Of a stretch of DNA of 64,000 nt, positions 3,754 through 40,662 are shown piece after piece. The notes under the pieces are model-generated. The model was not told where the DNA came from and did not search any database. It saw only the letters and a list, made by a program, of their open reading frames with translations. Each line of letters opens with the position of its first letter. Position 1 is the stretch's first letter. The position numbers and the translations under genes are program-made. This DNA comes from Candidatus Latescibacterota bacterium (GTDB taxonomy: Bacteria > Latescibacterota > UBA2968 > GCA-2709665), in the NCBI GenBank assembly GCA_965248435.1, contig OZ252100.1, forward strand, positions 5,312,001 to 5,376,000, in the 5' to 3' direction.

Positions 3754-3880
3754 GTTGCGCTATCTGGCGAGGAATCGCTACAACAGTAATCTTCTTGTTG
3801 AAAAGCAGAAAAACCGGAAAAACAGAGAAAGTGATGTCCGCTCCTTTATTCCATTCCTGATGACAAAAAACAACACGGAC

Positions 3881-3984
3881 GCTTAACACGCGATGCCCGC
3901 TACACTCCCTTCGGTCATTCGGCCCTCCGGGCACATTACCTCCGCTACGCTCCGGCAACGTCGGGTATCGCGAGGCCGTTAACG
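3881..3984 (+). repeat. attC-like site
   Basis: GCTTAAC...GTTAACG with inner arms CGCGATGCCCG / CGGGTATCGCG; next gene starts 34 bp later. Confidence 0.8.
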
Positions 3985-4017
3985 GAAATCGCCCCTACCA
4001 CCCCAAAGGAGGGAAAA

Positions 4018-5906: not shown

Positions 5907-6221
5907 ATGAAAGGGAAACCGAAACGGACATTTGATTCCGATTTCAAGCGTGAAGCAGTCCGGATCGCGGATGCCGGCGACGTGACGGATCGGCAGGTAG
6001 AGCGAGACCTGGGGCTGTACCAGGGAGCGATCCGCACGTGGCGCAAGGAACTTGAAGCCGACCCTGAAGAGTCCTTCCCGGGTACGGGGCACCAGAAGCC
6101 CCTGGAGGAGGAGAACCGCCGTCTGCGTCGCGAGCTGGAGATCGCTCGTGAGGAACGGGACATCCTAAAAAAAGCAGTCGCCATCTTTTCAAAGACACCG
6201 AAAGCCGGTTCCGGTTCATGA
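5907..6221 (+). CDS. IS3 transposase OrfA
   Basis: Identical to copy 1 OrfA. Confidence 0.9.
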   Translation: MKGKPKRTFDSDFKREAVRIADAGDVTDRQVERDLGLYQGAIRTWRKELEADPEESFPGTGHQKPLEEENRRLRRELEIAREERDILKKAVAIFSKTPKAGSGS

Positions 6222-7063
6222 GGGACCACCGCTGGGAATTTTCGGTGGAGAGGATGGCGAAGGTCCTGGAGGTATCCAAGAGCGGTTTCTATGCCTGGCT
6301 GCTGCGGCCCGAGAGCGCCAGAAAGAGGGCCCGGCGGCTTCTGGACGCCCGAGTCAGAGCGGCGTTCGAGGCGCACAAAGCTCGCTACGGCAGCACGAAG
6401 ATCGCCCGGTATTTGACCGGCCAGGGCCATCCGTGCAGCCGCACGCGAGTTGCCCAATCGATGCGCCGGCAGGGCCTGCGGTCGAAGGTCGCACGGAAGT
6501 TCAGGGCCACAACGGACTCGAATCACCATCTGGCTGCGGCGCCGAACCTGCTGGATCGCAATTTTGACATCGACGCGCCGAACAGGGTGTGGGCCAGCGA
6601 CATTACGTATCTGCCGAGCAAGGCTGGCTGGTTGTATCTGGCGGTCTTCATCGACCTGTTCTCGCGGCGCATCGTCGGGTGGTGCGTGAGCACCAGCCTG
6701 CGGCACGAGATGGTCCTCAAGGCGCTCTCGCGTGCTATCCGTGCCCGGCGTCCGCCAAAGGGGCTGATGATCCACTCCGACCGCGGCATCCAATACTGCT
6801 GCGAGGGGTTCCGGGAAAAGATCGCCGAATATGGGTTCGTCCAGAGCATGAGCCGAAAGGGGAACTGCTGGGACAACGCAGTGTCCGAGTCCCTTTTCCG
6901 GTCCCTCAAGACCGAGTGGGCTTACCACATCGACCTGGACGACCTCGAGCACGCCGAGCCAGAACTCTTCGAATACATCGAGGTCTTCTACAACAACCAG
7001 CGGCTGCACGCGTCTTTGGATTACGTATCTCCAGCCGCCTTCGAACACCAAAAAGCGGCTTAG
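6218..7063 (+). CDS. IS3 transposase OrfB
   Basis: DDE motifs. Confidence 0.95.
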   Translation: MRDHRWEFSVERMAKVLEVSKSGFYAWLLRPESARKRARRLLDARVRAAFEAHKARYGSTKIARYLTGQGHPCSRTRVAQSMRRQGLRSKVARKFRATTDSNHHLAAAPNLLDRNFDIDAPNRVWASDITYLPSKAGWLYLAVFIDLFSRRIVGWCVSTSLRHEMVLKALSRAIRARRPPKGLMIHSDRGIQYCCEGFREKIAEYGFVQSMSRKGNCWDNAVSESLFRSLKTEWAYHIDLDDLEHAEPELFEYIEVFYNNQRLHASLDYVSPAAFEHQKAA

Positions 7064-8762: not shown

Positions 8763-8814
8763 ACGTGTCGAACCGCGTTACGTTGCGGGCGATACAATTT
8801 GGGTATCGCACGTC

Positions 8815-8911
8815 AGATAACAGCACAGTTTGCGCTGCTGCTGCGGTCGCCGCCTTGGCCATCGGCAACGCCTCGTCAGCTCGGCCCTCGCAAACCGGCA
8901 TAACGTTAACA
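8815..8911 (+). repeat. attC-like site
   Basis: AGATAAC...GTTTGCG...CGCAAAC...AACGTTAACA. Confidence 0.75.
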
Positions 8912-9116
8912 GAAAGCACGCGCCAAAGTCAAAACAGGCGGCCGTCCCGGCCGCCAGGAAAATCTTTGAACCACTTCTCTTGCTTGATGGATTTGTTCGA
9001 CAGCGAATGAGCTATACGGAGTTTTTTCGACCAGATTTTTCCGTATAGGCAAGAGTTCGCGGCGAGAAGACCAATATGAGTGCACAATAAGTGAAAGGCT
9101 ACCCGGTGACGGTCAA

Positions 9117-11924: not shown

Positions 11925-12459
11925 TCGTCGTCTCCGTTCTCGGGCCGGTTCAGGGGGATTCCCAGGATCTCCGAGGCTTTTTTTTGGATCTCCAGGATCT
12001 TCTCTGCCTGTTCCAGACGTCGCCGTAGCCGGGCGTTCTCTTTGCGAAGTTGCTCGTTCTCCCGGGCTACGGGGTCACGTCGGCGCCCTTTCGGGCCACG
12101 CTCCTTCGAGAGTGTCCCCAGAGCCCCCTCACGACGAGCGCGTCGCCATTCTGTCAGAAGCGAGGAATAAAGACCTTCCCGTCGCAGCAATGCCCCAACC
12201 TCGCCTGGCTGTCGGCAGGCGTCGGCCTCTTCGACGATCCGCAGCTTATACGCGGCGCTGAAATGACGTCGCTTAGCTTTCTCCGGAACCTCTGCATCGG
12301 GCCGTGCTTCGTTGGAGCTCCCTTCACTCAGCACGGGGTGCTCCAACGACGGACGCTCCTTGACTTTGCTGTTACCGTTCATCTTTGATCTCTCCTCCGC
12401 CCTCAATTACTCATTAATTTCTGTGGGGGAGGTGTCTCGCTAATTATAGGCACGTAGGG
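11925..12459 (-). mobile_element. IS3-family element B, left end + OrfA only
   Basis: Reverse complement of 20346-20880; OrfA 12382->11906. Confidence 0.9.
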
Positions 12460-13200
12460 GGGTATCTGAACGACATTGGCCTTGCCGATGACGTCACACA
12501 GGAGGCGTTCATTGCGGCCTTTACTGATCTGTCGAGCCTCAGGGAGGCAGACCAGTTCAGGAGCTGGGTCTGTTCAATAGCCATTAACCTCTGCAAAATG
12601 CAATTGCGAAAGCCCAAGATCGAGGAGAACGGCATTGACCCTGACGGGATGCCGGGACTAGACCTCTCTCCAGACGAGGTATACGAACGGGAGGAACGCA
12701 GGCTTCAGATTCTTGGTGTCCTGGACTCCCTGCCGGAAGGAGAAAGGGAGGCTGTCGTCCTCTACTACCTTCTTGGGATGCGTGTGGATTCTGTGAGTGA
12801 ATCACTCGCTATCTCGAAGAACGCCGTGAAAGTCCGCCTGCACCGTGGCCGTCAAAGACTAAGACAGGAGTTGATCGCCATGGATGAGAAATCAGATAAA
12901 GTGGATGTGGAATCCTTCGCGGACTGGTCAAAACTGACAGATGAGGAGATGGTGGCCACGCTCAGGAAGACCTTTACCGAGGATCTCGCGATTGCCCTGG
13001 TGAGGAAAGACAACGCCACACGCCGGGTTCAAGACAAGATCATGCGGAACATTTCAAAGCGTGTTCAAGAAATCATGCAACGCATGATTGAAGAGAGGTC
13101 ACCATCAGAGGCTGAGATTGACAGATCCCGCACGACGATCCTGAAAACTATCCATGAGCTACAGAGTGCAGGCACTATTAGGCCCTCTCTAGTTGACTGA
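12460..13200 (+). pseudogene. 3' part of ECF sigma factor with C-terminal FliG_C-like domain
   Basis: GYLNDIGLADDVTQEAF (region 2), LPEGEREAVVL...VKVRLHRGR (region 4); tail EDLAIAL..KIMRNISKR resembles FliG C-terminus; 5' part at 36138. Confidence 0.8.
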
Positions 13201-13443
13201 CAAGGTTAACCGGCGTCAAATAGTATACCGCCCAGGGGGAATCTCTCTCTGGGCGGCTTGTCTGTTCACTGGCAGGTGGCGGCACGGCTTGTAAAAGCGG
13301 ATTGCCGGCTCGCTTTGTTGACGCTCTTCGCAGGGGGCTGTGAGCTTTTAACCTCCCTCACAATAAGGCTTTTCTGTATATTCCTGAGTGACGCCCTCAA
13401 AGATTTGCCTGGAAAGCAACGCTATGAATATCTATCCGTTTGG

Positions 13444-19969: not shown

Positions 19970-20345
19970 GGGGAGCCAGATTGTAGCTCTCACTGAAACT
20001 CTCGCCATTGTGGTTAACAACCGGGGCTTCAGTTGGAGTCTCATATACAGCCAGATCAACCTCAGTAGGTTTCCAGACGACTTTGCAGACGTGCATCTGC
20101 ATCAACTGCTTTTTCTCGTCTGGAGTGGCGGCTGAGATGAGTTCAGAGAATGTCGCCAGTGTGTCCTGAATTGTGGATGCATTGGCGACTTTCTTTTTTG
20201 CCTCCTCAATATCAAGATCAATGGTAAGAATTTCCTGATCCAGCTGGTCTTTTCGTTCTTCAAGGGCCAGTATTTTTGGGTGATGGATTGATTTCTACCT
20301 TGTTGGTGGCAATACTCTCAACGAGTGCATCTATTTTCTTGACTA
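19970..20345 (-). pseudogene. C-terminal remnant of probable large serine recombinase
   Basis: Frameshifted KIDALVESIA..ILALEERKDQLDQEI..TLATFSELISAATPDEK..CKVVWKPTEV coiled-coil tail; cut by IS at 20346. Confidence 0.45.
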
Positions 20346-21819
20346 CCCTACGTGCCTATAATTAGCGAGACACCTCCCCCACAGAAATTAATGAGTAATT
20401 GAGGGCGGAGGAGAGATCAAAGATGAACGGTAACAGCAAAGTCAAGGAGCGTCCGTCGTTGGAGCACCCCGTGCTGAGTGAAGGGAGCTCCAACGAAGCA
20501 CGGCCCGATGCAGAGGTTCCGGAGAAAGCTAAGCGACGTCATTTCAGCGCCGCGTATAAGCTGCGGATCGTCGAAGAGGCCGACGCCTGCCGACAGCCAG
20601 GCGAGGTTGGGGCATTGCTGCGACGGGAAGGTCTTTATTCCTCGCTTCTGACAGAATGGCGACGCGCTCGTCGTGAGGGGGCTCTGGGGACACTCTCGAA
20701 GGAGCGTGGCCCGAAAGGGCGCCGACGTGACCCCGTAGCCCGGGAGAACGAGCAACTGCGCAAAGAGAACGCCCGGCTACGGCGACGTCTGGAACAGGCA
20801 GAGAAGATCCTGGAGATCCAAAAAAAAGCCTCGGAGATCCTGGGAATCCCCCTGAACCGGCCCGAGAACGGAGACGACGAATGAGGGCAACTGCCGAACA
20901 ATTGGCGCCGGTGGTGGGGGTGGCAGCGGCCTGCCGTGCACTGGATGTAGCACGGGCGTCTCTCTACCGCCACCGAAAGTCCCCTTGTGTCTCTCCGCCC
21001 CGGCCGCGACAACCCTCCTCACGCAGCTTGACGACTCCGGAGCGGGCCCAGGTGCTGAAAACGCTTCACGAGGAACGGTTCGTAGACCGCGCTCCAGCGG
21101 CCGTGTATGCGACCCTGCTGGAGGAAGGGCGCTACCTGTGCTCGATTCGAACCATGTACCGCGTGCTGGCAGCGGTCGCAGAAGTGAAGGAACGCCGCAG
21201 GCAGCGCCGTCACACGCATCGAGAACCGCCGCAATGGGTGGCAACCGCCCCCAACCAGGTCTGGACCTGGGACATCACCCGACTGCCCGGTCCGCGGAAG
21301 TGGACAACCTTCGCCCTCTACGTTGTCCTGGATCTGTTCTCGCGCTACGTCGTCGCGTGGATGGTGGCTTTGCGGGAGACAGCAGCCCTGGCCAAACGGC
21401 TGGTGCAGGGCGCTTGTCAGAAGCAGGACATCCAGCCTGGACAGCTCACGCTGCACCAGGACCGCGGTGGCCCAATGACGGCCAAGACGTTCTCCCAACT
21501 CCTGGTGGATCTCGACATTCTGGCCAGCTACAGCCGACCCCGAATATCCGACGACAACCCGTACTCAGAAAGCCACTTCAAGACCCTGAAATACGCACCG
21601 GCTTATCCCGGGGGTTTTTCCAAACCGGAAGAGGCGCGGTCATACTTCCGAGTCTTCTTCCCCTGGTACAACACCCAGCACCGACACAGCGGACTCGGCC
21701 TGTTCACGCCCGAAGCTGTGCACTACAACCGCGCCGGGGATCTTTAAGCGGCCAGGCAACAGGTTCTGGACGATGCCTACCTGCGACATCCTGAACGCTT
21801 CGTCAACCATCCGCCCCAG
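20346..21819 (+). mobile_element. IS3-family element B, lacking right end
   Basis: OrfA 20423-20884, OrfB 20881-21747 (WTWDIT, HQDRG, DNPYSES); OrfB stops early (TAA where the 36.4 kb copy has CAA). Confidence 0.9.
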
Positions 21820-21948
21820 TTATAATCAACAAACGGTTGTTGAAAACCGTCATGCCGTTCGCACTGCCTAATGCTCCCCCAGTCGGCAAGGCGCGCAACC
21901 TCGTTCCTTCCGTATCTGAACCATCGGGGTCTGCCAATCCCAGTTTCT

Positions 21949-22764
21949 TCAGCCCAAGATAGGACCACCCGCAATCGAATCATCACACCTTCCACAGGTA
22001 ACATTCTCACAGTGGGTTATATAGGGATCTTCCTGGATGGCCTGCGTTGCAGCTTCCAATGCGTCTGAGGCGGGGTAGGCCAGCCACCTGCTATTTCCAA
22101 CACTTCCTTCCCTCACAAATGGAGACATCACCGATTCAAACTTGAGAAAACCACCAGAACACCCCCCTGCCTCCACTGCTAGGGGCTGGCCATCTGGGCC
22201 GTTGGCCCACCTCCTGAAAAGAACCCGACCAGCTTTCTTCTCCGCCAGATGAATCAGAGTCATTTTAGTCGGATCGACTCCAGCCAGAAGCACATATCCT
22301 TCGACAGAAGCCAGAGCGTCCAGAGGAGCGTAGACGTCATCCGCCTTTTGCCCCTTAAGCAGTTGATCCGCCAACGGGCCCATCGCTGAAAAAGAACAGA
22401 CCGGATGGTTTCCTCTTCGACTTTCATTCCGTTTTACCACGGCTGCGGAGATCGCTCCCATGTCCTCGTCAATTTCCGTGCTCGTCTCTGGATTGAAGAT
22501 ACATTTCACGTTGTTCCGGGTCCGAGCAAGGTACTCGTAGTCGGCAGCATTGCGTCGGAATTGGAGATGCACAGGCGGGGAAACAGAGTATGCCCAACTG
22601 AAAGAAGGCACTAACAGGGTGCACCCTCCAAAGAGAAACGCGTCAACTACCGCCGATGCACCCCCCTCAACTCTTCCGAAGGAACTCAGAGATCAGTGCA
22701 GACAAACGGACTGGCCCTCAAGCTGCAGCTCGCGGATTCCGCCTCGGATCTCATCAAGTGTCAC
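21949..22764 (-). pseudogene. Aminoglycoside 3-N-acetyltransferase (AAC(3)/YokD family) with in-frame stop
   Basis: VCLH*SLSSFG (TGA at 22693-22695 replaces Ser), HPVCSFSAMG, MTLIHLAE motifs. Confidence 0.8.
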
Positions 22765-22832
22765 CGACTGTGCTCCAATGGATCTGGTTCTGGTCCGCTC
22801 CAAACTGTTTATAGACCATACACCTGTGTTGC

Positions 22833-22920
22833 GGATAACGTTCTCGGCACCTACGAACCTGCCGCAGGCAGGTATTCAGTGAGGGGCGAATGCCCCGATC
22901 CGCGCACGGGCGTGTTATAG
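22833..22920 (-). repeat. attC-like site
   Basis: Minus strand CTATAAC...GGCAGGTTCGTAGGTGCCGAGAACGTTATCC. Confidence 0.85.
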
Positions 22921-22993
22921 GAAGTGCCAGCAGTTTGAGTTTAAGAGCTTGTCGTGGACTCTACGGAACACCTCAAGACGAAATATCCATTTC

Positions 22994-23913
22994 TTACTTC
23001 TCAAACATAGCTCTGTATTCTGGAATCATCCAGTCCCGATTGGTGAAATCGGGGAGACTGTTTCGGCGGAACAAATCCAGCAGGTAAAGGCATTGATCCT
23101 TTCGAATGCTTTTAGCGAGATTTGGGCCATACGATGCCCCGCCGAAGTGAAGCACACCCCGGCTGGAGGTCAGATAGACCATCTCGTGGGTAGTCATCAC
23201 AGCTGTCATCAGACCCATGGTGTCATAGTAGCCCGCGCCCTCCAAGGTGTCTTCATACATCCAGGCGCAGCTAAAACCTATACGATCAGCTACACGACGA
23301 AAAACCTCCGAGTTCTTGACCAAAGTGCAACACGGCAAACACCGTGGATGGTTCGTGCCCACCATTGTAGCCAAAGGCTCTCCAGTGTCCTCTGGAGTTG
23401 GAGCAAACAGGTTTCTTAGATTAGGTGATGAAGGTACAACTTATTCTTCTGAGCACGCTCTTTGGACCGGTATTGCGAAAGGTCCTGAGTAAGAACATTC
23501 CTATCGCCATGAAATAGACTCAAGCTGTCTGGATCTTCATTGGCTTGAATCGCCCACGTTTCCTCTCGGTCTTCGATCTCCAGAATCATTTGGTCGATCG
23601 TATCCGACATCACAAAGCAAATATCGGAGTCGAGAAGGAGGTAGTAATCACAATCGGGGTCATCCATCACGAACTGTCGAAGAACCTCACCGTGCGAGTT
23701 GGCCTGTCTCCCCTCGGCCTCCCAGCCGCTTTGTCTGAACTCAATTCCGACGCTTTCGGCGTAATCCTTTAGATCCTCCGTTCGCTCTGTGGACGAATTG
23801 TCCATGATGACGAACTTCAGATCACTACGCGCACTGTGCATGGCGAAGTAGGATCTGGCCGCCAGCTCGGTGAAACCGGAACTGTTGTGATTGATGATAA
23901 CCGCGTTGATCAT
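22994..23913 (-). pseudogene. Family 2 glycosyltransferase-like cassette gene, split
   Basis: IMDNSS and LLLDSDI motifs in 23416-23913; second part 22994-23374 in another frame. Confidence 0.65.
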
Positions 23914-23965
23914 CGAACTAGAGGTCCTGATTGTCTACTCTGTTATCAGGAAAGGCTGGCATTTC

Positions 23966-24051
23966 CTATAACGTTTCCGGCACCCACGAACCTGCCGAGC
24001 GGGGTTGGGCGAAGGTGCGGGTGCACCGAGCGGCGCACGGTCGTGTTAGCG
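23966..24051 (-). repeat. attC-like site
   Basis: Minus strand CGCTAAC...GGCAGGTTCGTGGGTGCCGGAAACGTTATAG; same family as 22833-22920. Confidence 0.85.
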
Positions 24052-24246
24052 GAAGTCGCTCTAAGGGTAGTATCGTTCGGATTAGGTCGGGGGCACAGAA
24101 ACAGCTCGACATACCACCATCCTGTTAGCAATATACGGAATCTGTACACCTTAGACCTTAGGTTCGCCACCCTCCTTGTAGAGGGCCTTCCCGCAAAGTC
24201 CCGCAGGGAATTCAATGCTAAGCCCGTTATTGGAGAGGTTTTCAGG

Positions 24247-26163
24247 ATGGACCTCATTTCAACAGTTGAGAAGGCCCAGGCAGGGGATCTGGAGGCCTTT
24301 GATTCTCTCGTACGACGCTTTCAGGATATGGCGGTTGGGTACGCGTACTCCTTGTTGGGCGACTTTCATCTTGCAGAAGATGCTGCGCAGGAAGCCTTCT
24401 TGGGAGCCTACACGAACCTGCCTCAGCTGCGTACTCCAGCTGCTTTCGTCACATGGTTCCGTCAGATCCTCTTTCGCCAGTGCCGGCGGCACAATCGCAG
24501 ACGAAGCCTCGATACCGTCTCGATTGGCTCGACGCCTGAGCTTGCTGCGGAAGCCCCGCATCCTGACCAAATTGCCGAGCAGTTGGACTTGCGCGACAGG
24601 ATTCTTGATCTGATCAGCGGCCTGCCAGAGCAGGAGGCGCAGTCGATTACCCTCTTCTACATCAGCGATTACTCACAAGCGGAGGTAGCGGCATTTCTCG
24701 GTGTATCCATAGACACCGTTAAGAACCGTCTCCGCTCAGCGCGTGGCAAACTGAAGGAAAGGATGTTAACAATGGCCAAACAGACCTTACGCGAAGAAGC
24801 TCCCTCCAAGGACGACTCGTTTGCCACTGTCGTAAGCCTTTGTAATGCTGCCCAAGCAGGTGACAGCGACCGCGTGAAGCAACTACTGGAGACACATCCC
24901 CAACTGGCAAAGCGAACGATCAGCCAATACGGGCAGATGGCGATTCAGTTTGCGGCACGGGAAGGCCATGCCGACGTCGTCCAGCTTCTGCTCAAGGCTG
25001 GAGCAGATCCGACATCAGGTATCTATCCGAACCGGTCGGCAACAAGTGCGCTGTCATTCGCACACGATCGGGGTCACGGCGCTGTGGTCAAAGTGATCGA
25101 AGATTTCCAAGCGGCTCACCCGCCCAAAACCGGTGAATCGCGTGCTGAAGATGGTCTTCTGACGGCTATTAAGGAAGAAGCCGTGGAAGCCGTGCGAACG
25201 ATGCTGGAAGCGAACCCGACACTCGCGCGCCACCCGTCGCGTCCTCTGACAAAAGCCGCAGCCATCGGCAATCTCGACATCGTGCGCTTGCTGCTCGACC
25301 ACGGCGCCGACCCAGACGATCCCTCCGACCTCGACCTAGGTGACGAAGGGACACTCAGAAATGCTGGCGAACCGCTGTGGAAGGCGGCTCAAGGGAACCA
25401 CTACGATGTGTGCAGGCTGCTGCTCGAGTGCGGCGCTGATCCGAGCGCTTATGTCTTCGCATCGGGGCCGGCGGCCGAAAGGGCAATAGAGAGTGGATAC
25501 GATGACATCCTTAGCCTCATCTACCGGTTCGGTGGAGCCGGGTTCGCGGATTGTGCGGCCCTGTCTGGTCAGATCGCTGTTCCTGCGGAGGTTTTGCATC
25601 TCCAGCCCGAGAAGGCCCCGCGTATGCTCTGGGGTGCTGCTCTTGGCGGCAACGTAGACCTTGCCGCTGTATGCTTCAAGTACGATCTGGAATCGGCAGA
25701 CTGGTTCGACCTGCTGTATCAGCCTCTCAGGGGTCGGAGAGGCCAGGCACGCTTGCGATATGCTGATGAGTCACGAGACGAACTGGCGGATAAGGTTGAG
25801 ATCTTAAGGATGATGCTGGAGCACGGTGCGTACCCAAACGTGCACGGCGAGGGAAATCAGAGCCTGCTGCATCGACTGCTTGGTGAGACGGGCCTTTGGA
25901 AAGATGAAGAGAAGAAGCCATTCGCAGAGCTGCTCCTCGACTTCGGCGCGGACATCGACGCCAGAGATGACGAACTGATGTCTACGCCGTTGGGGTATGC
26001 AGCACGCTTTGGTCACGCTGCAATGGTCCGTCTCCTGCTGGAACACGGTGCCCGAACCAACCTCCCGGGCGGCGAGCCCTGGGCGACGCCTTTAGCTTGG
26101 GCGGAAAAGATGGGGCACGAGGAGATCGCTGAAGTACTGAGGAATCACGGCGCAGAAGAATAG
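24247..26163 (+). CDS. ECF sigma-70 factor fused to ankyrin repeats
   Basis: AEDAAQEAF region 2, TVKNRLRSAR region 4; multiple ankyrin motifs (AAREGHADVVQLLLKAGAD, TPLGYAARFGH); GGAGAGG RBS. Confidence 0.9.
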   Translation: MDLISTVEKAQAGDLEAFDSLVRRFQDMAVGYAYSLLGDFHLAEDAAQEAFLGAYTNLPQLRTPAAFVTWFRQILFRQCRRHNRRRSLDTVSIGSTPELAAEAPHPDQIAEQLDLRDRILDLISGLPEQEAQSITLFYISDYSQAEVAAFLGVSIDTVKNRLRSARGKLKERMLTMAKQTLREEAPSKDDSFATVVSLCNAAQAGDSDRVKQLLETHPQLAKRTISQYGQMAIQFAAREGHADVVQLLLKAGADPTSGIYPNRSATSALSFAHDRGHGAVVKVIEDFQAAHPPKTGESRAEDGLLTAIKEEAVEAVRTMLEANPTLARHPSRPLTKAAAIGNLDIVRLLLDHGADPDDPSDLDLGDEGTLRNAGEPLWKAAQGNHYDVCRLLLECGADPSAYVFASGPAAERAIESGYDDILSLIYRFGGAGFADCAALSGQIAVPAEVLHLQPEKAPRMLWGAALGGNVDLAAVCFKYDLESADWFDLLYQPLRGRRGQARLRYADESRDELADKVEILRMMLEHGAYPNVHGEGNQSLLHRLLGETGLWKDEEKKPFAELLLDFGADIDARDDELMSTPLGYAARFGHAAMVRLLLEHGARTNLPGGEPWATPLAWAEKMGHEEIAEVLRNHGAEE

Positions 26164-26194
26164 CATATACCGGTCAGGCAACTGGAGCGATATC

Positions 26195-26245
26195 CGCTAA
26201 CGTTCTTTGTGTGCGCGAACCTGCGCAAGCAGGCAGAGTCGAGTC
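26195..26245 (-). repeat. attC-like half site (R' side)
   Basis: Minus strand GCAGGTTCGCGCACACAAAGAACGTTAGCG. Confidence 0.7.
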
Positions 26246-26905
26246 TCAAATGCCTTTCGATCGTCCAAAGTAGATCGCGACTCTAAACTCGACGATGCGT
26301 TTTGCTTCAGCCCCATTTCGACGTCCGTTGAAGTTCCAGAAAAACTCTAGGAGCCTCTCGGCCTCCTCCACTGAGTCAAATCGGAACTCTGTCTCAACTA
26401 CTTCGCAGTTAAACCCTCGATTACTCCACCACACAGGATCGCTGGCGATCTTCCTCTCGAAGAGACCCGAAAACTCGTCGTCACCCGCGTTATCCACCAC
26501 CACAATTTGCCCGCCAGGCTCCACAACTCGGTTCGCCTCTGCTAGTCCGTCTTCCCCGTATCCAGCACCTGGGAAGAAGTATGCCCACGTGGCGTAGGCT
26601 CCAGCAAATCCACAAGATCGAAAGGGTAATTCTTGCGCGACAGCTGTAACCCAGAGAAACTCCTTCTGGGCATCTATCATCTTTGGTGCTGGTTCACAGG
26701 GGATAACTAGCCGATCTTCTGTCGTAAGCTGAGCTGCAGTGTGACCATCCCCGGCTCCAATGTCGAGCACTTTTCCATCTGGAAGAAGTGATTGAAGATG
26801 CGCAATCACAACACCATCGCGATCCATACATCGGCGCTCGATTTCAAATAGTTCCGGATATTGTGACCCGTAGAATGGAACTTGCTTGGGTATAGGCTCA
26901 GGCAT
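26246..26905 (-). CDS. Class I SAM-dependent methyltransferase
   Basis: VLDIGAGDG motif I; RVVEPGG. Confidence 0.85.
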   Translation of the reverse strand: MPEPIPKQVPFYGSQYPELFEIERRCMDRDGVVIAHLQSLLPDGKVLDIGAGDGHTAAQLTTEDRLVIPCEPAPKMIDAQKEFLWVTAVAQELPFRSCGFAGAYATWAYFFPGAGYGEDGLAEANRVVEPGGQIVVVDNAGDDEFSGLFERKIASDPVWWSNRGFNCEVVETEFRFDSVEEAERLLEFFWNFNGRRNGAEAKRIVEFRVAIYFGRSKGI

Positions 26906-27203
26906 GGTAGATTGGCCGGCATTAGGGTAAAGATTATTCTCACACCCGCCTTTCGAGTGCTCAACGTTCCACTCCCCTATGCTTCTAGTTGGCCTCCTGA
27001 TTCTAGTGAACGAGGAACAAATCTCAAATTCGCTCAGATTTCGTCACTCTTAGACCCCTGCCCCTGACCAGAATCAAAAAGACCCTGAGCCAGAGGTGGA
27101 AAACGGTTCAAATTTCGTCGTTCTCGACGCGATCTATATCTGAACAGGGTCAGGGTAGAGAACTCACGGGAGAGAACGAGGAACTGTCGCTGAGCGATTG
27201 CTG

Positions 27204-27983
27204 TTAGAAATATTGCTCGATGAATCTTCCAATGGCGTCGCTATTACAGTCTGCAATCACATGATCCGCAATTTCCTTAACTTCGGTTGTGGCATTCCCC
27301 ATCGCGACCTTGACGCCTGCGAGGTTCAGCATTCCCAGGTCAGGGATGTCATCGCCGAACGCAACCAAGTCTTCTGGAGCGATGCCTATCGAATCCAGAA
27401 GTCTCTGTAGCGTTACGGACTTGTCTATCGACGCATCGACGACGTTCAGAAAGGTTCCATTCATCGCTGGTATTGCTCTTCCACCCAAGCTTCGAATCCA
27501 ACCCATGTGATGGAGCAAAGAAGCGCCTAGACCATCAATTGCCACCTTTGAAACAGAGTCAAATTTAACACGATGCAGAGGCACAACCATGTCGGGAGTT
27601 GCACTGTGCCTTTGTGCAAGCTCTTCATCTGTCAGCCAAGCATTGGTCGCGAATTCATGCCCGTAAAACTCAATTGACAGATGAGTCTCACGGGCTAGTA
27701 TCGGATGCTCGACAATCTCTTTCGCCAATTTCCCTAGCTTTACCTCGGCACTTGGCTTCTCCAGACCGAACTGCCAAACCGCTCCATTAAGAGTAACGTT
27801 ATAACATCTTTCAAGAAGCTCCATTTCGACAAATCGTTTCACCGCTCTCATAGGACGCGAAGTTGCCAAGAATACATAGTTGCCGTTACCTAGCCATCGG
27901 CAAAGTACCTGCTTGGTATGCGCACCAATCTTCTTATCAGAGTTTAGCAGCGTATCGTCAAGGTCGAACGCGAGAACAGTCAT
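27204..27983 (-). CDS. Cof-like HAD-IIB hydrolase
   Basis: DLDDTLL, ATSR, AFGDDIPD, AMGNA; start moved to MTVLAF because the longer ORF runs through the attC. Confidence 0.9.
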   Translation of the reverse strand: MTVLAFDLDDTLLNSDKKIGAHTKQVLCRWLGNGNYVFLATSRPMRAVKRFVEMELLERCYNVTLNGAVWQFGLEKPSAEVKLGKLAKEIVEHPILARETHLSIEFYGHEFATNAWLTDEELAQRHSATPDMVVPLHRVKFDSVSKVAIDGLGASLLHHMGWIRSLGGRAIPAMNGTFLNVVDASIDKSVTLQRLLDSIGIAPEDLVAFGDDIPDLGMLNLAGVKVAMGNATTEVKEIADHVIADCNSDAIGRFIEQYF

Positions 27984-28025
27984 GTCGTGCTCATAATCGA
28001 GATTCGTCAGAAAGAACAGCCATAC

Positions 28026-28113
28026 GCATAACGTCCTGGCCATTCCGCAAACCCGCGAAGGCAGGTTGAGCGGAGGCGCGAATGCGCCAGAGCCGTGGGT
28101 GCGCGTGTTATAC
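28026..28113 (-). repeat. attC-like site
   Basis: Minus strand GTATAAC (contains the upstream gene's TAA stop)...GGACGTTATGC. Confidence 0.85.
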
Positions 28114-29079
28114 GCAGCACTGCCTATCAATTGCGTTCAAGACATCCTGTTGCAGTCTCTCTAAATCCGGGTCTTTCCAATCTTTGGTCTTTACGTGATC
28201 CCGAATGGACGAATCACAGAATGGAGTTTCACGCAGTTTCTCTAAGGCTTCTAAACAACGGCCTTCGTCATTAGCAAGTTCCGTCAAAACAAACTCCCGA
28301 TGCTCGGCTAGAAAGTAGGTTTCAAATTCTCGAGTCTTTTCACACAGTCCTCTGAGTTTCCCGCGACCTTCTTTTGAATCTGGCACTCCGTAGTTCAGAT
28401 TTGTCCTGCAATACTCGAAGAGTGAAGTGAGGTAGGCTCCCCACTCATGCGGTAGATGTTCTGGATGCTCCCGTAGCAGATCCGCTTTACTGGTCAGATA
28501 CTGTCCCGATGATCGGGCAGTGAGTGCAGTGGCTGCCCAAGAAATCGCTCTTACCAAGTCCTTAGTAGTGCCTTCGCTGCCTTGGTTGTTTCCGCGATTT
28601 GTGTTGTACCCGTAGAATTCACCAGAGGCATTCGGGAAGTCCATCGGGACCTTGGCGACCCCTGGTCGTCCGAACAAATGGCAGATCAGCCAGGAGCCCG
28701 CGTACATCCGTTCACGAATCCACTCGCGGATCGACATTACAGCAAGCTGGTCTCGAACCTCGTCTCCATATACCAAGACGCTATTCAGTTTCAGGGCCGG
28801 TCTAACCTTCTGATTCCTGCAAACAAGCTCAAGATCCAACTCCATTGGACTGGATTGATCTAGGTTCGCCGTCAATTCCAAAGCCATTTGCCGGTCCTTC
28901 TCGCTGACGACGTCCCCCAAGATGATCACCAAATCCAAGTCGCTGCCGGGAACGACATAGTCTGCAGCGTAGCTCCCCTCCGCGTAAATTGCATCGATTC
29001 GGTTGGGGAACGCTATCGTGAACGCGTCAGCTATATCAGCGATTACGTCTTTGACGTCTTGGAGGTTTGTGTAAACCAA
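28108..29079 (-). CDS. Pol-beta-type nucleotidyltransferase domain protein
   Basis: YAEGSYA...SDLDLVII motif. Confidence 0.8.
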   Translation of the reverse strand: MVYTNLQDVKDVIADIADAFTIAFPNRIDAIYAEGSYAADYVVPGSDLDLVIILGDVVSEKDRQMALELTANLDQSSPMELDLELVCRNQKVRPALKLNSVLVYGDEVRDQLAVMSIREWIRERMYAGSWLICHLFGRPGVAKVPMDFPNASGEFYGYNTNRGNNQGSEGTTKDLVRAISWAATALTARSSGQYLTSKADLLREHPEHLPHEWGAYLTSLFEYCRTNLNYGVPDSKEGRGKLRGLCEKTREFETYFLAEHREFVLTELANDEGRCLEALEKLRETPFCDSSIRDHVKTKDWKDPDLERLQQDVLNAIDRQCCV

Positions 29080-29100
29080 GTGCTATCCTTGCAGTGTTGC

Positions 29101-29119
29101 ATTTAACGTTCTCGGCACC
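29101..29119 (-). repeat. attC-like half site cut by IS
   Basis: TAACGTTCTCGGCACC identical to the corresponding part of 22833-22920. Confidence 0.7.
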
Positions 29120-29437
29120 TGACCTGCCCCCACCTATGTATCCAGATCCAGAGTTAGGATGCGGTTGCGACTAGCCCGATTCGAGCTCTTTCAGGCGCCG
29201 GGCCTGATCGACTTCCATTCCGCCGTATTCACGGCGCCAACGGTAGTAGGTCTGCTCGCTGATGCCGAGATGGCGGGCAGCCTCACCGATGGTCTTGCCC
29301 TCGGAGATGAGGATCTCCGCTTGCCGGAGGTGCCCGATGATCTGCTCTGCGGTATAACGCTTCCTGGCCATAATGACCCCTTTCTGGTTACCCATATCCT
29401 AACTCTAGGAATGGGAACAATCCAGGGGGTCAGGTCA
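29120..29437 (-). mobile_element. Internally deleted (318 bp) derivative of IS3-family element C
   Basis: Both ends of 43722-44945 retained, OrfB lost. Confidence 0.9.
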
Positions 29438-30222
29438 GGAGTTCAAGATACACATCACAGGGTGTCTTTCGCAAGTCTTTCTGGTAAGCCGGTAGAAGCC
29501 ACCTTCGACGGAGGCATCCTGACCAGCGACAGCGGGGTGCTGCTGCTTCGTGAGGTGGAGGCCAGAACCGGGATTTTGCATAGGATGGTTGCGGCGCTCA
29601 CGGATCGCCGACATCAAAGTTACGTACATCATTCGATGACGGACCTGATCAAACAACGTGTGTTTCAGATGGCCTGTGGCTATGAGGATGCGAACGATTG
29701 CAATACGTTGCGCGAGGACCCCGGCTTCAAGGCGGCCTGTGATCGGTTGCCGCTTTCCGGTGCGGATCTGGCCAGTCAGCCCACGATGAGTCGGTTCGAG
29801 AACCGGATCAGCAGAACCGATTTGTATCGGATCGCCAAGGCCTTTGCGGATGTGTTTGTCGCCTCGTATGAGGAACCGCCCGAAGCCATTCTGTTGGATA
29901 TCGATGACACGGAAGACAAGGTGTATGGGTCTCAACAGTTGTCGTTGTTCAATGCGTATTTCAATGGCTATTGCTACCAGCCCCTGCATATCTATGAAGG
30001 CCAGACGGGCAAGTTGATCACGACGGTCTTGCGTCCTGGCAGGCGGCCCACGGGTAAAGAGATCGTCACCATCCTCAAACGGGTGATCGCCTACCTGCGC
30101 CGCGCCTGGCCCGACGTGGCGATCCTGTTGCGCGGCGATGCGCATTTTTCTTGCCCCGAAGTTCATACGTTGTGTGAGGAAGAAGATGTGTATTTTGTCT
30201 TTGGACAAAACGGCAACGCCAA
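29438..30222 (+). pseudogene. IS1380-family transposase fragment
   Basis: Matches internal part of 41929-43293; truncated at both ends. Confidence 0.9.
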
Positions 30223-30291
30223 TTCCCAGTCAAGGTCGTAGAGGATACCTCGAGTCGAATCTCCGTCTACATCGCTCCCGGGACGCCATTC

Positions 30292-30777
30292 ATGGCACCA
30301 GCCTGTAGTCGCGATGAGCATTTGTTTACAATTGCCAGCCGAAGGTGGCGGCTCAAAGAGGAAACATGGTTTGACCAGCCCATGCTCTGGACTTCAATGC
30401 CTGGAGAATCCTGCTCGATCTGGACGATCTGGCAGGGTGCGGACTGGCAACATTGGGGATGGAAGGTGAACCCAGAAACCCCTTGGAGGCGGACCAGCAT
30501 TGGATTCGATACTGCCGACCTTGTGCTTGATGCCGTCATCGAACCTGATTTCAAATCCTGGTCTTGGAAAGATGAAGAGGAGTTAGATGAAGCGCAGAGC
30601 CTCGGATTACTGACCCTGGATGAAGTTGCTTCGGTTCGTGATGTAGCAAACCGTGTTCTGCGGCGGGTTCTCGATAGCGAGCAGGAGCAGGTTAGAGCGT
30701 GGGCTAGTTGGCGCCCAGATCCAGATTGGGACATTCCCGAGTTGGCACCTGGATGGGAGACTCCTGATCTAGCATAG
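30292..30777 (+). CDS. DUF402-like protein (probably 5'-truncated)
   Basis: GFDTADLVLD...WSWKDEEELDEA motif. Confidence 0.65.
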   Translation: MAPACSRDEHLFTIASRRWRLKEETWFDQPMLWTSMPGESCSIWTIWQGADWQHWGWKVNPETPWRRTSIGFDTADLVLDAVIEPDFKSWSWKDEEELDEAQSLGLLTLDEVASVRDVANRVLRRVLDSEQEQVRAWASWRPDPDWDIPELAPGWETPDLA

Positions 30778-36242: not shown

Positions 36243-36570
36243 CGGAACGTGTCAATAAGAATGAGACACCTCGCGTGAAAGTTTAGTGTAGGGTGGGCTT
36301 GCACTCGGCGAGCACTCGATGATGTTGCTTGGTTGGTTGATCCAGACTTCCGTCGGGATCTTTGGGGCCTGGGGCGGATGGTTGACGAAGCGTTCAGGAT
36401 GTCGCAGGTAGGCATCGTCCAGAACCTGTTGCCTGGCCGTTTGAAGATCCCCGGCGCGGTTGTAGTGCACAGCTTCGGGCGTGAACAGGCCGAGTCCGCT
36501 GTGTCGGTGCTGGGTGTTGTACCAGGGGAAGAAGACTCGGAAGTATGACCGCGCCTCTTCCGGTTTGGAA
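36243..36570 (-). mobile_element. IS3-family element B, right-end fragment
   Basis: Matches 3' OrfB of 20346-21819 and supplies the missing end CGGAACGTGTCAATAAGAATGAGACAC. Confidence 0.85.
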
Positions 36571-36636
36571 CGGCTCGGCGCACGAGGCTCCTTCGCCAAA
36601 CCCCTACGGGGTTCGGGAGTGCTGGAAACGTTATAG
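36571..36636 (+). repeat. attC-like half site
   Basis: GGTTCGGGAGTGCTGGAAACGTTATAGG closely resembles the 23966 site. Confidence 0.7.
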
Positions 36637-36849
36637 GCCATGCCACGCAGTCACGTCGCTCAAGACAGCAGCAAGGGTGGCAGAATAACAAAACTTGGAA
36701 ACGCAAGCCTGAAGCAGGGCGAACGTAGCTCATTCGTGCGCGATTCAAGGGGGTTTCGAGTGTGCAAGTCCGAAACGCCGGCGCCTCCACATCGGTCTCA
36801 TCAGTGTAGGCGAAGCCGTCTGTGGTGGCGTGACTTTGGCGGATCCACG

Positions 36850-37129: not shown

Positions 37130-38379
37130 TGATGTGGCCTTGAAAAAGTGGACGGTGAACTAAGCCGCTTTTTGGTGTTCGAAGGCGGCTGGAGATACGT
37201 AATCCAAAGACGCGTGCAGCCGCTGGTTGTTGTAGAAGACCTCGATGTATTCGAAGAGTTCTGGCTCGGCGTGCTCGAGGTCGTCCAGGTCGATGTGGTA
37301 AGCCCACTCGGTCTTGAGGGACCGGAAAAGGGACTCGGACACTGCGTTGTCCCAGCAGTTCCCCTTTCGGCTCATGCTCTGGACGAACCCATATTCGGCG
37401 ATCTTTTCCCGGAACCCCTCGCAGCAGTATTGGATGCCGCGGTCGGAGTGGATCATCAGCCCCTTTGGCGGACGCCGGGCACGGATAGCACGCGAGAGCG
37501 CCTTGAGGACCATCTCGTGCCGCAGGCTGGTGCTCACGCACCACCCGACGATGCGCCGCGAGAACAGGTCGATGAAGACCGCCAGATACAACCAGCCAGC
37601 CTTGCTCGGCAGATACGTAATGTCGCTGGCCCACACCCTGTTCGGCGCGTCGATGTCAAAATTGCGATCCAGCAGGTTCGGCGCCGCAGCCAGATGGTGA
37701 TTCGAGTCCGTTGTGGCCCTGAACTTCCGTGCGACCTTCGACCGCAGGCCCTGCCGGCGCATTGATTGGGCAACTCGCGTGCGGCTGCACGGATGGCCCT
37801 GGCCGGTCAAATACCGGGCGATCTTCGTGCTGCCGTAGCGAGCTTTGTGCGCCTCGAACGCCGCTCTGACTCGGGCGTCCAGAAGCCGCCGGGCCCTCTT
37901 TCTGGCGCTCTCGGGCCGCAGCAGCCAGGCATAGAAACCGCTCTTGGATACCTCCAGGACCTTCGCCATCCTCTCCACCGAAAATTCCCAGCGGTGGTCC
38001 CTCATGAACCGGAACCGGCTTTCGGTGTCTTTGAAAAGATGGCGACTGCTTTTTTTAGGATGTCCCGTTCCTCACGAGCGATCTCCAGCTCGCGACGCAG
38101 ACGGCGGTTCTCCTCCTCCAGGGGCTTCTGGTGCCCCGTACCCGGGAAGGACTCTTCAGGGTCGGCTTCAAGTTCCTTGCGCCACGCGCGGATCGCTCCC
38201 TGGTACAGCCCCAGGTCTCGCTCTACCTGCCGATCCGTCACGTCGCCGGCATCCGCGATCCGGACTGCTTCACGCTTGAAATCGGAATCAAATGTCCGTT
38301 TCGGTTTCCCTTTCATAGACACACCTCCTGACGGAAGATACTTTGGTTCTCGGTGTGTCCACAATTTCAAAACGCCTCA
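37130..38379 (-). mobile_element. IS3-family element A, copy 3
   Basis: OrfB 37160-38005, OrfA 38002-38316; same IRs. Confidence 0.95.
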
Positions 38380-38907: not shown

Positions 38908-39353
38908 GAAGAAGAGCAGTCAGATGAAGAATGTCTACGAGGATCTGATGAAGAAAGTAGCAGAGTTAACGAAGGAAGCTATAGAAGAGATGAGAAGGAT
39001 TGCCAGAGATGGTGAACCGAAAGTTTGATACGCATCTGCTCTATAGCTGGATGTGGCAATGCCACATTCAGCCTTAGAAGTAATGCGTAGTCTCGCGCCT
39101 ATAGATCTATTTTAATGTCTCGGTCGAGATCCGGAGAGGCAACAGAGGGACCAAAGAATCTGATTCAAGTCCCGGTCGATGACCTGAGTTCAGGTTTCTA
39201 TTACCGAGTGTCTCTATAGAATGGGGTTTACGAACTGGTTCAGGTTATCTACATTTAAGTTAGGATTTGCGCATTTCGTCCTATTGCGGAGATTTGGGAC
39301 GAATGAGCGCTTCGCGGTGGCCGACTCCGGATTCTCAAAAGCATTGGAGATGT

Positions 39354-40466
39354 ATGATTCGGCTGACTCAAATAACCTCCGAGCAGTTGGAGTGGTATCA
39401 AAGAATCACCGGCGGTTTTTATGGAATGGATTTCACCTTTGGAGGACCACCGGGTTTATTCGGATTCTACGGCGAGTTTGATATTTCCAGCGAAGGGCAG
39501 GTTGACTTGGCAAACCTCCTGGTTGCCGATTCCTGTGAACACGGGAAGGACGAGATGATTGCCGAGATTAGTGCCCTGCGACGGACTATCATGGGTAGCC
39601 GGTGGTCTGTCACACTGCGCCAGGAAAACCGACTCGAAGCTGCCTGGGAGGAGTTCAAGATGGAGTTTTTCTCGGGCCCAACGCGTGATGGAACGGTCGC
39701 AACCCACCTATTGCTCTCGCACGACAATCCTGCTGTTTTTAGAGAGCCTTATTTCAATGATAACTTTGAACTGCGTTCTGACCGTGCCCGTCAGAAGTCT
39801 GTCCAGCGAAAGCCAGGGGACTACTATCCTGTAAGTCCAGAGCGAGCCCCTGAGCAGGTTGAGGAAGTTGATGTGACGGAACTTGCACATCGCATTCGGG
39901 ATAAGTCACTGGTGGCGTTCACGGGCGCCGGGTTATCCGCCACGGCAGGTATCCCCACGTTCGAAGGGAAAGGTGGGCTGCAGGAACAATTCCCTATCGA
40001 CAATTACCGTTTTCCTGGTGCTGTTGCCGATTGGATGATACACCGACCTCGTGAGACGGCTTTAATGCTTGGAAAATTCTATACCCGTTTCATGACAGCT
40101 TGTCCCACCCAGGCTCACGCAGCTTTCGCACGATTGGAGAAACACGGGATACTGAAACACATCATTACGGGCAACTTTGACATGCTGCACGAGCGGGCCG
40201 GTAGCCAAAGAGTGCATATCAATGAACCCAAGTACTTTAAGGGCTCAAATGAGGGGTGGGCTTGGATTCAGGAAGGTCAGGTAGTTTTGGTTACAGGCGT
40301 GTCGATGGATGCAAATAATGGTCTGCTGGACTATGCCCGTTACAACGGCCTCCAAATCGCCGTCATAGATCCAGAACGGCCGGACTTCATGCATGCACAA
40401 GACTGGTTTGTCGAGGGTCTCGCTGACGATATCTTGCCGGAACTGACAAGGCTACTCACAACCTGA
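39354..40466 (+). CDS. Sir2/CobB-like domain protein with unknown N-terminal domain
   Basis: FTGAGLSATAGIPTF, IITGNFDMLHERAGS; no Zn-finger cysteines. Confidence 0.85.
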   Translation: MIRLTQITSEQLEWYQRITGGFYGMDFTFGGPPGLFGFYGEFDISSEGQVDLANLLVADSCEHGKDEMIAEISALRRTIMGSRWSVTLRQENRLEAAWEEFKMEFFSGPTRDGTVATHLLLSHDNPAVFREPYFNDNFELRSDRARQKSVQRKPGDYYPVSPERAPEQVEEVDVTELAHRIRDKSLVAFTGAGLSATAGIPTFEGKGGLQEQFPIDNYRFPGAVADWMIHRPRETALMLGKFYTRFMTACPTQAHAAFARLEKHGILKHIITGNFDMLHERAGSQRVHINEPKYFKGSNEGWAWIQEGQVVLVTGVSMDANNGLLDYARYNGLQIAVIDPERPDFMHAQDWFVEGLADDILPELTRLLTT

Positions 40467-40560
40467 TCATTCACTTCAGGGAATGCAAGTACGGGAGCAT
40501 GATTCCAAGATCTGACCAGTATGAAACTCTGAGATATAGATGGAGATCATGTCCCACGTC

Positions 40561-40650
40561 CTCTAACAACCGATCCCCGCTGCGGCACATTCGTGCCTTA
40601 GCCCTTCGGGCACCCCACTGCGTGAGTTCGTGGATCAAAGAACGTTATGC
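40561..40650 (+). repeat. attC-like site
   Basis: CTCTAAC..GATCC...GGATCAAAGAACGTTATGC. Confidence 0.8.
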
Positions 40651-40662
40651 TGGATTCAATGA

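Follow-up and report, generated by a model that had tools for sequence, protein, structure and literature searches.

Can a transcription initiation factor be carried as an integron gene cassette? The question is raised by a locus in the 64,000-nt stretch of Candidatus Latescibacterota bacterium DNA analysed here (contig OZ252100.1, positions 5,312,001 to 5,376,000; referred to as the window, in which positions are counted unless genome coordinates are indicated). A first-pass annotation had described an extracytoplasmic function (ECF) sigma factor fused to ankyrin repeats as a mobile cassette that faces against an array of attC recombination sites. We conclude that the locus is probably a real integron-type cassette, which holds a complete sigma-ankyrin gene (24247..26163, + strand, 638 aa) and its leader antisense to the array, in an array that is broken by insertion sequences (IS) and has no integrase. 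Because no integron integrase (IntI) was found in the genome, we class the array as a CALIN, a concept said to go back to Cury and colleagues in 2016 and to denote clusters of attC sites without an integrase.

We used a profile built from three attC copies of the window for an nhmmer search of the 5.67-Mb genome. This returned 106 matches (~100 copies), which form arrays with a spacing of 0.5-3 kb at ~946-993, 1439-1446, 2055-2089, 3853-3872, 4947-4951, and 5548-5552 kb of the genome, and in the window. From an alignment of 43 sites we derived a covariance model (CM), R1, and on these sites tested a fold with a TAAC/GTTA R box, an L stem of 10 bp that bears a single bulged base, and a pair of inner hairpins. 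In the alignment 91.4% of cells are paired vs 79.7% in shuffles, a value reached by none of 500 shuffles; controls in which the pairing partners were slid by 1-3 columns have 29-44% of cells paired. Compensatory changes were found in 16 of the 25 pairs overall and in nine of the ten pairs of the L stem, the TAAC/GTTA pairs are kept in 38-42 of the 43 sites, and the bulge lies at column 15. These results show the attC family to be a folded element that is conserved and has R and L boxes.

The cassette's own attC, site B (23963..24055, - strand), is matched by R1 over its full length (1-94) at 72.3 bits (E 2.2e-15). Its R'' core is TCCGCTAAC at 24053->24045 (R'' CGCTAAC), its R' is GTTATAG at 23972->23966, and its L stem is formed by CCG(T)GCGCC and GGTGCCGG, with two inner hairpins. 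The attC of the preceding cassette, site C (26192..26280, - strand), is decayed: it scores 15 bits, its R and L pairs no longer form, and the nhmmer match is confined to profile positions 51-123 (E 2.8e-4). It keeps the 3' half (hairpin 2, the L' arm, and GAAC|GTTAGCGGA); the 5' half (R'' and L'') is unrecognisable, and its place overlaps the 3' end of a methyltransferase open reading frame (ORF).

The first-pass annotation had rested on exact complementary repeats at 24045 and 26201, and both are present: GTTAGCGGA at 24045-24053 (+) and TCCGCTAAC at 26193-26201 (+) are exact complements, on opposite strands, and each occurs once in the window. As a bare 9-mer the repeat is no rarer than chance (eight matches with at most one mismatch vs 11.4 expected in the window). 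What lifts the pair above chance is its position, as one copy is the R'' core of the full attC at site B and the other the R' core of the attC remnant at site C. The same annotation had placed the end of the unit at 24045. However, 24045 is the end of R'', and the unit continues through its own attC to 23972, a stretch that was already included in the start coordinate of 23966 given there.

On the basis of the attC model alignments and R'/R'' complementarity, the recombination unit spans 23972..26200 (- strand; 2229 nt). The predicted cuts fall between 26201 and 26200 (after the G of the preceding R', before TT) and between 23972 and 23971 (after the G of its own R'). R' and R'' of this cassette are complementary at 14 of 16 bases including the core, and at 10 of 12 beyond the GTTA core. 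A cassette start that is complementary to its own R'' is the footprint that recombination at G|TT leaves, and the footprint recurs across the genome: 33 of the 60 adjacent attC pairs match at 9 or more of 12 bases beyond the core vs 107 of 5000 random pairings. It is also clear at the attC of the following cassette, site A (22830..22924, - strand; 81.8 bits), where 11 of 12 bases of the R'' flank agree with the cassette start. Thus, site B has the inverse R'' and R' cores, the folded R and L boxes, and the cassette start complementary to its own R'' that are expected of an integron cassette.

We also considered whether the array had been read on the wrong strand, in which case the repeats would be a matter of chance or mis-orientation, the sigma gene would lie forward, and the other genes would be reversed. 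The attC sites are near-palindromic, so the same flank pairs fit either reading, and the 9-mer by itself is unremarkable, as noted above. The distribution of genes speaks against such a reversal: the longest ORF is co-oriented with attC in 64 of 71 inter-attC gaps genome-wide, and the five neighbouring genes in the segment all lie on the minus strand. In addition, the L-stem bulge is on the 5' arm of the model strand, so that on the bottom strand the extrahelical base would presumably occupy the 3' arm, which is where known attCs have it. We regard this explanation as highly improbable. The attC model runs on the minus strand here and the sigma-ankyrin gene is on the plus strand, so the gene is antisense to the array.

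The seven gaps with the opposite orientation comprise three with a 363-aa ORF, one with an HTH_38+rve transposase, one ambiguous case (119 aa vs 118 aa), and two with sigma fusions, namely the sigma-ankyrin gene and a sigma-FliM gene (s956). The 363-aa ORFs lie antisense in three arrays, in gaps of ~2.1 kb (G000:C1 1444413-1445504, 2066415-2067506, and 3860707-3861798); the one that was scanned is an IS110-family transposase, and the others have the same length and layout. We take them to be reminiscent of IS1111-attC elements, which target attC sites. With IS elements and the ambiguous 119-aa case set aside, the reversed cassette genes found in this genome are sigma fusions.

The enclosed gene is intact and faces against the array, as had been proposed from the sequence. 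Its product has Pfam matches to Sigma70_r2 (residues 21-87, 24307-24507; E 7.9e-13), Sigma70_r4_2 (residues 117-169, 24595-24753; E 3.7e-13), and Sigma70_ECF (E 2e-9), and scores 97.7 bits on the NCBIfam ECF superfamily model TIGR02937 (cut-off 42.9). With sigma2 and sigma4 only and a family score above the cut-off, it is an ECF (group 4) sigma factor. A motif, APSKDDSF, at about residues 184-192 marks the junction to a tail of ~450 aa (about residues 190-637, ~24814-26157), in which Pfam finds only ankyrin families. The AF2 model of the protein is confident, with a pLDDT of 85.9 and a pTM of 0.75, and a Foldseek search of the PDB returned ankyrin solenoids and DARPins only, with nothing on the packing of the domains. 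The fused domain exceeds 50 aa and no cognate anti-sigma gene lies nearby, as in ECF factors with C-terminal extensions.

Between R'' and the ATG lies a 193-nt leader (24054..24246, + strand), the presumed promoter region, and 37 nt separate the stop codon from R'. The unit carries no anti-sigma gene because there is no room for a second gene. The first-pass annotation had anticipated both points, with an upstream region of ~195 bp. Within the leader, the near-palindrome TAGAGGGCCTTC (24179-24190, + strand) also occurs upstream of paralogous sigma genes. In its generalised form, T[AG]GA[AG]GGCCTTC, it lies 30-70 nt upstream of the sigma-ankyrin gene and of both sigma-FliM genes (G000:C1 946940 and 956126), with variants upstream of s2110 (sigma-ankyrin), s959 (sigma-FliG_C), and the sigma-GNAT genes described below. 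The motif has 16 matches in the genome vs 1-3 in mononucleotide shuffles, and was found in nine of 158 upstream regions across homologues. Candidate explanations are an operator, a hairpin in the leader, and leader sequence that was inherited.

A working model can be proposed from these features. A promoter within the leader would drive the gene without any need of read-through along the array, and this would explain why a reversed position is both open to it and required. In that orientation the gene would escape array read-through and stay under its own control. Sigma2 and sigma4 would bind core RNA polymerase. By analogy with ECF groups that have C-terminal extensions and lack anti-sigma factors, the ankyrin tail would replace an anti-sigma factor and gate the core in cis, with binding of a partner either releasing or blocking it. 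Given the ankyrin repeats, that partner, and hence the signal, may well be a protein.

How does this unit compare with known systems? Like the cassettes of sedentary chromosomal integrons and CALINs, it has a structured attC of ~90 nt with AAC/GTT cores and a bulged L stem, a start complementary to its own R'', and a single gene, and it belongs to arrays of tens of units. Unlike in integrons, there is no IntI here or in 30 of the 31 genomes searched, and the preceding attC is half decayed; a complete integron (IntI above 265 bits on TIGR02249 with an adjoining attI) was not found in the genome itself. The cargo, a transcription initiation factor encoded antisense, also differs from that of usual cassettes, which is an enzyme or a toxin-antitoxin system. 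Reversed cassettes generally carry their own promoter, and the reverse-oriented, self-promoted cassettes of Vibrio superintegrons are mostly toxin-antitoxin pairs. The sigma-ankyrin unit resembles these in its antisense gene with its own upstream region, which would be expressed independently of Pc, and departs from them in holding a single sigma-fusion gene and no addiction module.

Among ECF sigma factors, groups with C-terminal extensions are described in the main text of Casas-Pastor et al. (2021; PMC7826278), including the SnoaL-like ECF41/56, the TPR-containing ECF42, and the Cys-rich ECF238. Our protein shares with these groups the sigma2-sigma4 core, the fused C-terminal domain, and the lack of an adjacent anti-sigma factor. 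It differs in its ankyrin solenoid tail (the word 'ankyrin' does not occur in that main text) and in belonging to one sigma-core clade with ankyrin, FliM, and GNAT-like tails, in contrast to the groups described there. Membership in ECF41 or ECF42 was ruled out, as the tail is only ankyrin, with no SnoaL-like or TPR domain. In the literature that we searched, subscription literature and supplements being outside its scope, there was no paper on sigma factors as integron cassettes and none on ankyrin-tailed ECF sigma factors.

A second candidate for comparison is MzaA of the MZA anti-phage system, also a sigma-70-family protein, with which our protein shares repeat-like regions and a partial profile match. 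Identity with MzaA (NF041931) was rejected (85.1 bits vs a cut-off of 800, and no Mza partner genes in the cassette). The likeness nevertheless suggests a defence-type sensor, in which an effector would be switched on by the sigma core once the ankyrin tail has detected a foreign or phage protein, in an MzaA-like manner. Besides the match to the MzaA model, the PADLOC candidate models PDC-M72A and 'Ankyrin' match the protein. The window also contains a SIR2-domain ORF (39267-40463, + strand, 399 aa) followed by an attC (40557-40653, + strand; 39.6 bits on R1), which has the look of a defence-type cassette within an inverted part of the broken array. A defence role would moreover fit reports that chromosomal integron cassettes often encode defence systems (bioRxiv 10.1101/2024.07.02.601686). 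The details argue otherwise: the MzaA score is far below the cut-off and its best stretch is an ankyrin repeat, the PADLOC matches fall on generic ankyrin regions only, and the cassette has no effector gene. Furthermore, PADLOC returned no match for the cassettes with sigma-FliM, sigma-FliG_C, or sigma-GNAT fusions. We therefore consider a defence function unlikely.

Several observations weigh against the reading of the locus as a self-promoted sigma cassette. Site C, at 15 bits, is far from the 69-82 bits of neighbouring attCs, and a functional attC was not found on both sides of the gene: the nearest intact site upstream in the array is site D (28023..28117, - strand; 69.3 bits). Because its upstream attC has no R''/L'' half, the unit cannot excise alone here. 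The smallest block with a full attC at both ends runs from D to B and includes a HAD hydrolase gene, the methyltransferase gene, and the sigma-ankyrin gene; this three-gene block would be the only excisable unit, given an integrase in trans, and the sigma-ankyrin unit is currently stuck in this genome. No integrase above the TIGR02249 cut-off (265 bits) is encoded in the genome, and among 31 related genomes IntI was found only in G004 (464.5 bits, two intI matches). In that genome, three 20-kb stretches scanned around the two intI matches have no attC of this family, nor do two stretches around its sigma homologues. Upstream of the sigma-ankyrin gene, a scan of the plus strand with the sigma-70 consensus, which is uninformative for an uncultured phylum, gave no promoter. 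The motif search yielded no target promoter or regulon, and only three of its 16 matches lie beside sigma genes in a comparable context. Finally, the closest sigma-ankyrin homologues elsewhere (56-59% identity) have no attC of this family within 5-6 kb, and the sigma-FliG_C gene of the window is truncated at both the 5' and the 3' end and is no working cassette.

Taken together with the boundary evidence, the first-pass proposal of a mobile cassette is borne out in part: the locus is a discrete integron-type unit with a reversed gene and its own leader, whereas the integrase is missing and half of site C is gone. A fossil cassette, delivered once by an integron and now fixed as a chromosomal regulator with its attC remains as decaying scars, is accordingly a distinct possibility, though one that we do not favour. 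Such a history would agree with the missing IntI and the half-lost site C. It would also agree with the interruption of the array by IS3-, IS110-, IS91-, and DDE_Tnp_1_4-type elements, and with the distribution in related genomes, 23 of 31 of which have the attC family and one of 31 IntI. Decay is harder to reconcile with the full-scoring attC at site B and with the near-perfect R'/R'' complementarity that is kept in 33 of 60 adjacent pairs. Further, the departure of a 98.8%-identical copy from the window sequence in other samples, described next, argues for recent movement. Since the fossil explanation bears on mobility at present and on nothing else, it can hold together with the reading of the locus as an integron-type cassette with an antisense sigma-ankyrin gene.

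Evidence on movement comes from public sequencing runs, which we compared over positions 20000-30500 of the window. One contig (X5 record 9, 2203 nt) covers 24035-26202 with 26 differences and continues with 33 nt unlike the window; another (X8 record 30, 319 nt) covers 26020-26202 and continues with 136 nt unlike the window. The two come from different studies, and both depart from the window one base past the G of the predicted G|TT, in agreement with the boundary that had been proposed at first. This departure at 26202 rests on two contigs, and Logan contigs tend to end at repeats, so that it gives good but incomplete support for cassette movement. Joints between attC copies in reads (e.g., 23997->28059 and 22873->28071) were rejected as excision products, since their sides of at most 36 nt fit other attC copies. 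Stretches of the window left uncovered in X5, X7, and X8 (the methyltransferase, the HAD hydrolase, the 165-aa ORF, and the AAC(3)-like gene) were not counted as evidence.

The cassette copy in X5 is 98.8% identical and has an in-frame TGG insertion at 25880, matching a 639-aa cluster representative (P0002; 99% identity). Of 22 listed differences, the leader (193 nt) has seven and the ORF (1917 nt) has 15, of which nine are synonymous and six are not. This pattern is consistent with purifying selection on the protein.

Is the fusion itself peculiar to cassettes? Proteins with the sigma-ankyrin architecture are common: r2, r4, and Ank occur together in nearly all of the best 120 matches, which come from assemblies labelled Latescibacteria, Poribacteria, Gemmatimonadetes, and others. 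The 638-aa form is rare, with none above 54% identity among 30 relatives searched and no full-length match in 168 genomes of the phylum. In eight of these 168 genomes only the tail is matched, from about residue 123-180 to residue 634 and at 53-57% identity, and in three of the eight there are internal stop codons. Sites of the R1 family were found near sigma homologues at four of 171 loci from other genomes and metagenomes (91 + 80 scanned), all of which encode sigma-GNAT fusions, and at none of the sigma-ankyrin homologues. Since the closest homologues elsewhere are without attC of this family, the architecture appears to be mostly chromosomal and the window copy one captured instance. Weak attC traces near sigma homologues in relatives (L019, 22 bits; L013, 16 bits; L012, 13 bits) are too weak to count, and comparison of the closest homologues (L123 vs L125, L126, and others) revealed no synteny beyond the gene itself.

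Relatives of the tail also occur without a sigma core. One stand-alone ankyrin protein is encoded in the same genome (G000:C1 2628290-2629978; 562 aa, 37% identity), and stand-alone homologues with 35-42% identity are found in most of the 30 relatives searched. In another family (genomes of genus g25), 470-490-aa proteins with 53-57% identity begin at the junction motif, and three loci of that genus look like sigma-ankyrin genes without sigma2 and with stop codons.

The sigma-FliG_C gene of the window (12418..13311, + strand) had been put forward as a companion cassette, a proposal that fails for this gene and holds for a wider set. The gene is an 89% copy of s959 elsewhere in the genome (blastp, blastn). 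It matches only r4 and FliG_C in Pfam, lacks the sigma2 N-terminus, has an IS3-family remnant upstream, and its homology ends ~15 nt into the attC. Other sigma-fusion cassettes were identified in the array at ~946-993 kb (genome coordinates): s956, a sigma-FliM gene (956158-957315, + strand), is reversed between full attCs of 55.4 and 63.9 bits; s946, a second sigma-FliM gene (946970-948121, + strand), is reversed with an attC 110 nt upstream; and s959 (959277-960119, - strand) is a forward cassette. A sigma gene with a FHIPEP fragment (an FHIPEP/FlhA linker), s943 (943471-944376, + strand), lies at the array edge, and the sigma-ankyrin genes s2110 (2110314-2111759, - strand) and s3218 (3218453-3219976, - strand) lie outside clear arrays. 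The genome also encodes a full FlhA and several FliG proteins, and the FliM, FliG_C, and FHIPEP tails suggest that these fusions dock on the flagellar switch or export gate.

Sigma fusions with a tail that weakly matches GNAT (Acetyltransf_9) were found in other assemblies. The 676-aa protein is near-identical in four of them (L062 5995-8025; L053 5995-8025; L048 2169-4193; L054 189-2219), and its gene is antisense to the attCs. In L062 and L048 full attCs lie on both sides of the gene, with an R'/R'' match of 15 of 16 bases. No IntI above the cut-off was found in the genomes holding L062, L053, L048, L054, and L013 (the four sigma-GNAT assemblies and G017). One of the four assemblies carries the label Latescibacterota, two are labelled Gemmatimonadetes, and one Rhodothermales, a spread that could reflect real cross-phylum transfer of the cassette or mis-binned contigs.

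Placing the first 195 residues in a phylogenetic tree groups the Ank, FliM, and GNAT forms in one clade (support 96/95), with the FliG_C and FHIPEP forms outside it on long branches. A junction motif, P-S-R/K-D-x-x-F, follows sigma4 in all members of the Ank/FliM/GNAT clade, whatever the tail. Besides the sigma-ankyrin unit, there are at least three further sigma-fusion cassettes with related cores (sigma-FliM twice, and sigma-GNAT in four assemblies with three phylum labels). A broader proposal, which we put forward tentatively and hold to be possible rather than probable, is that integron arrays in this lineage and in co-occurring bacteria circulate self-promoted ECF sigma factors, in which one core is combined with interchangeable tails (ankyrin, FliM, FliG_C, GNAT-like) and the gene is almost always antisense.

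The best TIGR02249 matches in the genome (two pieces of 104 and 93 bits, between which model positions 177-236 are missing; 195.5 bits for the whole protein) belong to a 283-aa XerA/IntI-like tyrosine recombinase with six near-identical copies. It is part of a 2.5-kb IS91-family element whose 394-aa transposase scores 452.7 bits. All six copies lie outside the window (G000:C1 1448.6, 2071.9, 3849.9, 4651.4, 4843.4, and 5171.5 kb). Four of them sit upstream of an attC array, at a distance of 2-3 kb and with its orientation, and another lies within the array at 2055-2089 kb. Every one of the six copies abuts G|TTA exactly at its right end, and cassette-like sequence comes next. These joints could reflect a target preference for the attC core, or the element could serve as a surrogate platform.

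The surroundings of the cassette are heavily rearranged by IS elements. The preceding cassette gene encodes a 219-aa class I SAM methyltransferase (26246..26905, - strand, co-oriented with the array; Pfam Methyltransf_11/25), and on the other side lies an unknown 165-aa ORF on the strand opposite to the sigma-ankyrin gene. The cassette-array ORF at 21952-22611 (- strand) is aminoglycoside 3-N-acetyltransferase-like (Pfam Antibiotic_NAT, E 4e-22); it scores 57 bits on the NCBIfam AAC(3) model, whose cut-off is 270 bits, and is thus a distant relative and no known resistance allele. Further attC sites on the plus strand of the window, in addition to the one behind the SIR2-domain ORF, are at 8811-8914 (35.4 bits), 3877-3987 (29.8 bits), and 36539-36639 (24.9 bits). 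Four IS3-family copies, each with a 281-aa rve ORF and a HTH_Tnp_1 ORF, are located at 2220-3065, 6218-7063, 37160-38005, and 55229-56074, and DDE_Tnp_1_4 and IS30-like transposases are also present.

In the usual view, integron cassettes are promoterless add-on enzymes. A sigma factor is the opposite kind of cargo, as it works only via the host RNA polymerase, and the locus described here provides a testable case of regulators, not only enzymes, travelling as cassettes. Together with the other fusions it forms a natural set of one-polypeptide proteins with different tails on one core, which may function as sigma switches. Blanco et al. (2024; PMC11551772) have argued for a functional isolation of chromosomal integrons from their host, and a sigma-factor cassette is a plausible counter-example. 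If sigma factors do circulate in arrays as proposed, a captured cassette would bring with it a complete module from signal to transcription that acts on the RNA polymerase of the host, and the isolation of cassette arrays would not extend to host regulation. Tail swapping combined with cassette shuffling would then be a route to regulatory innovation.

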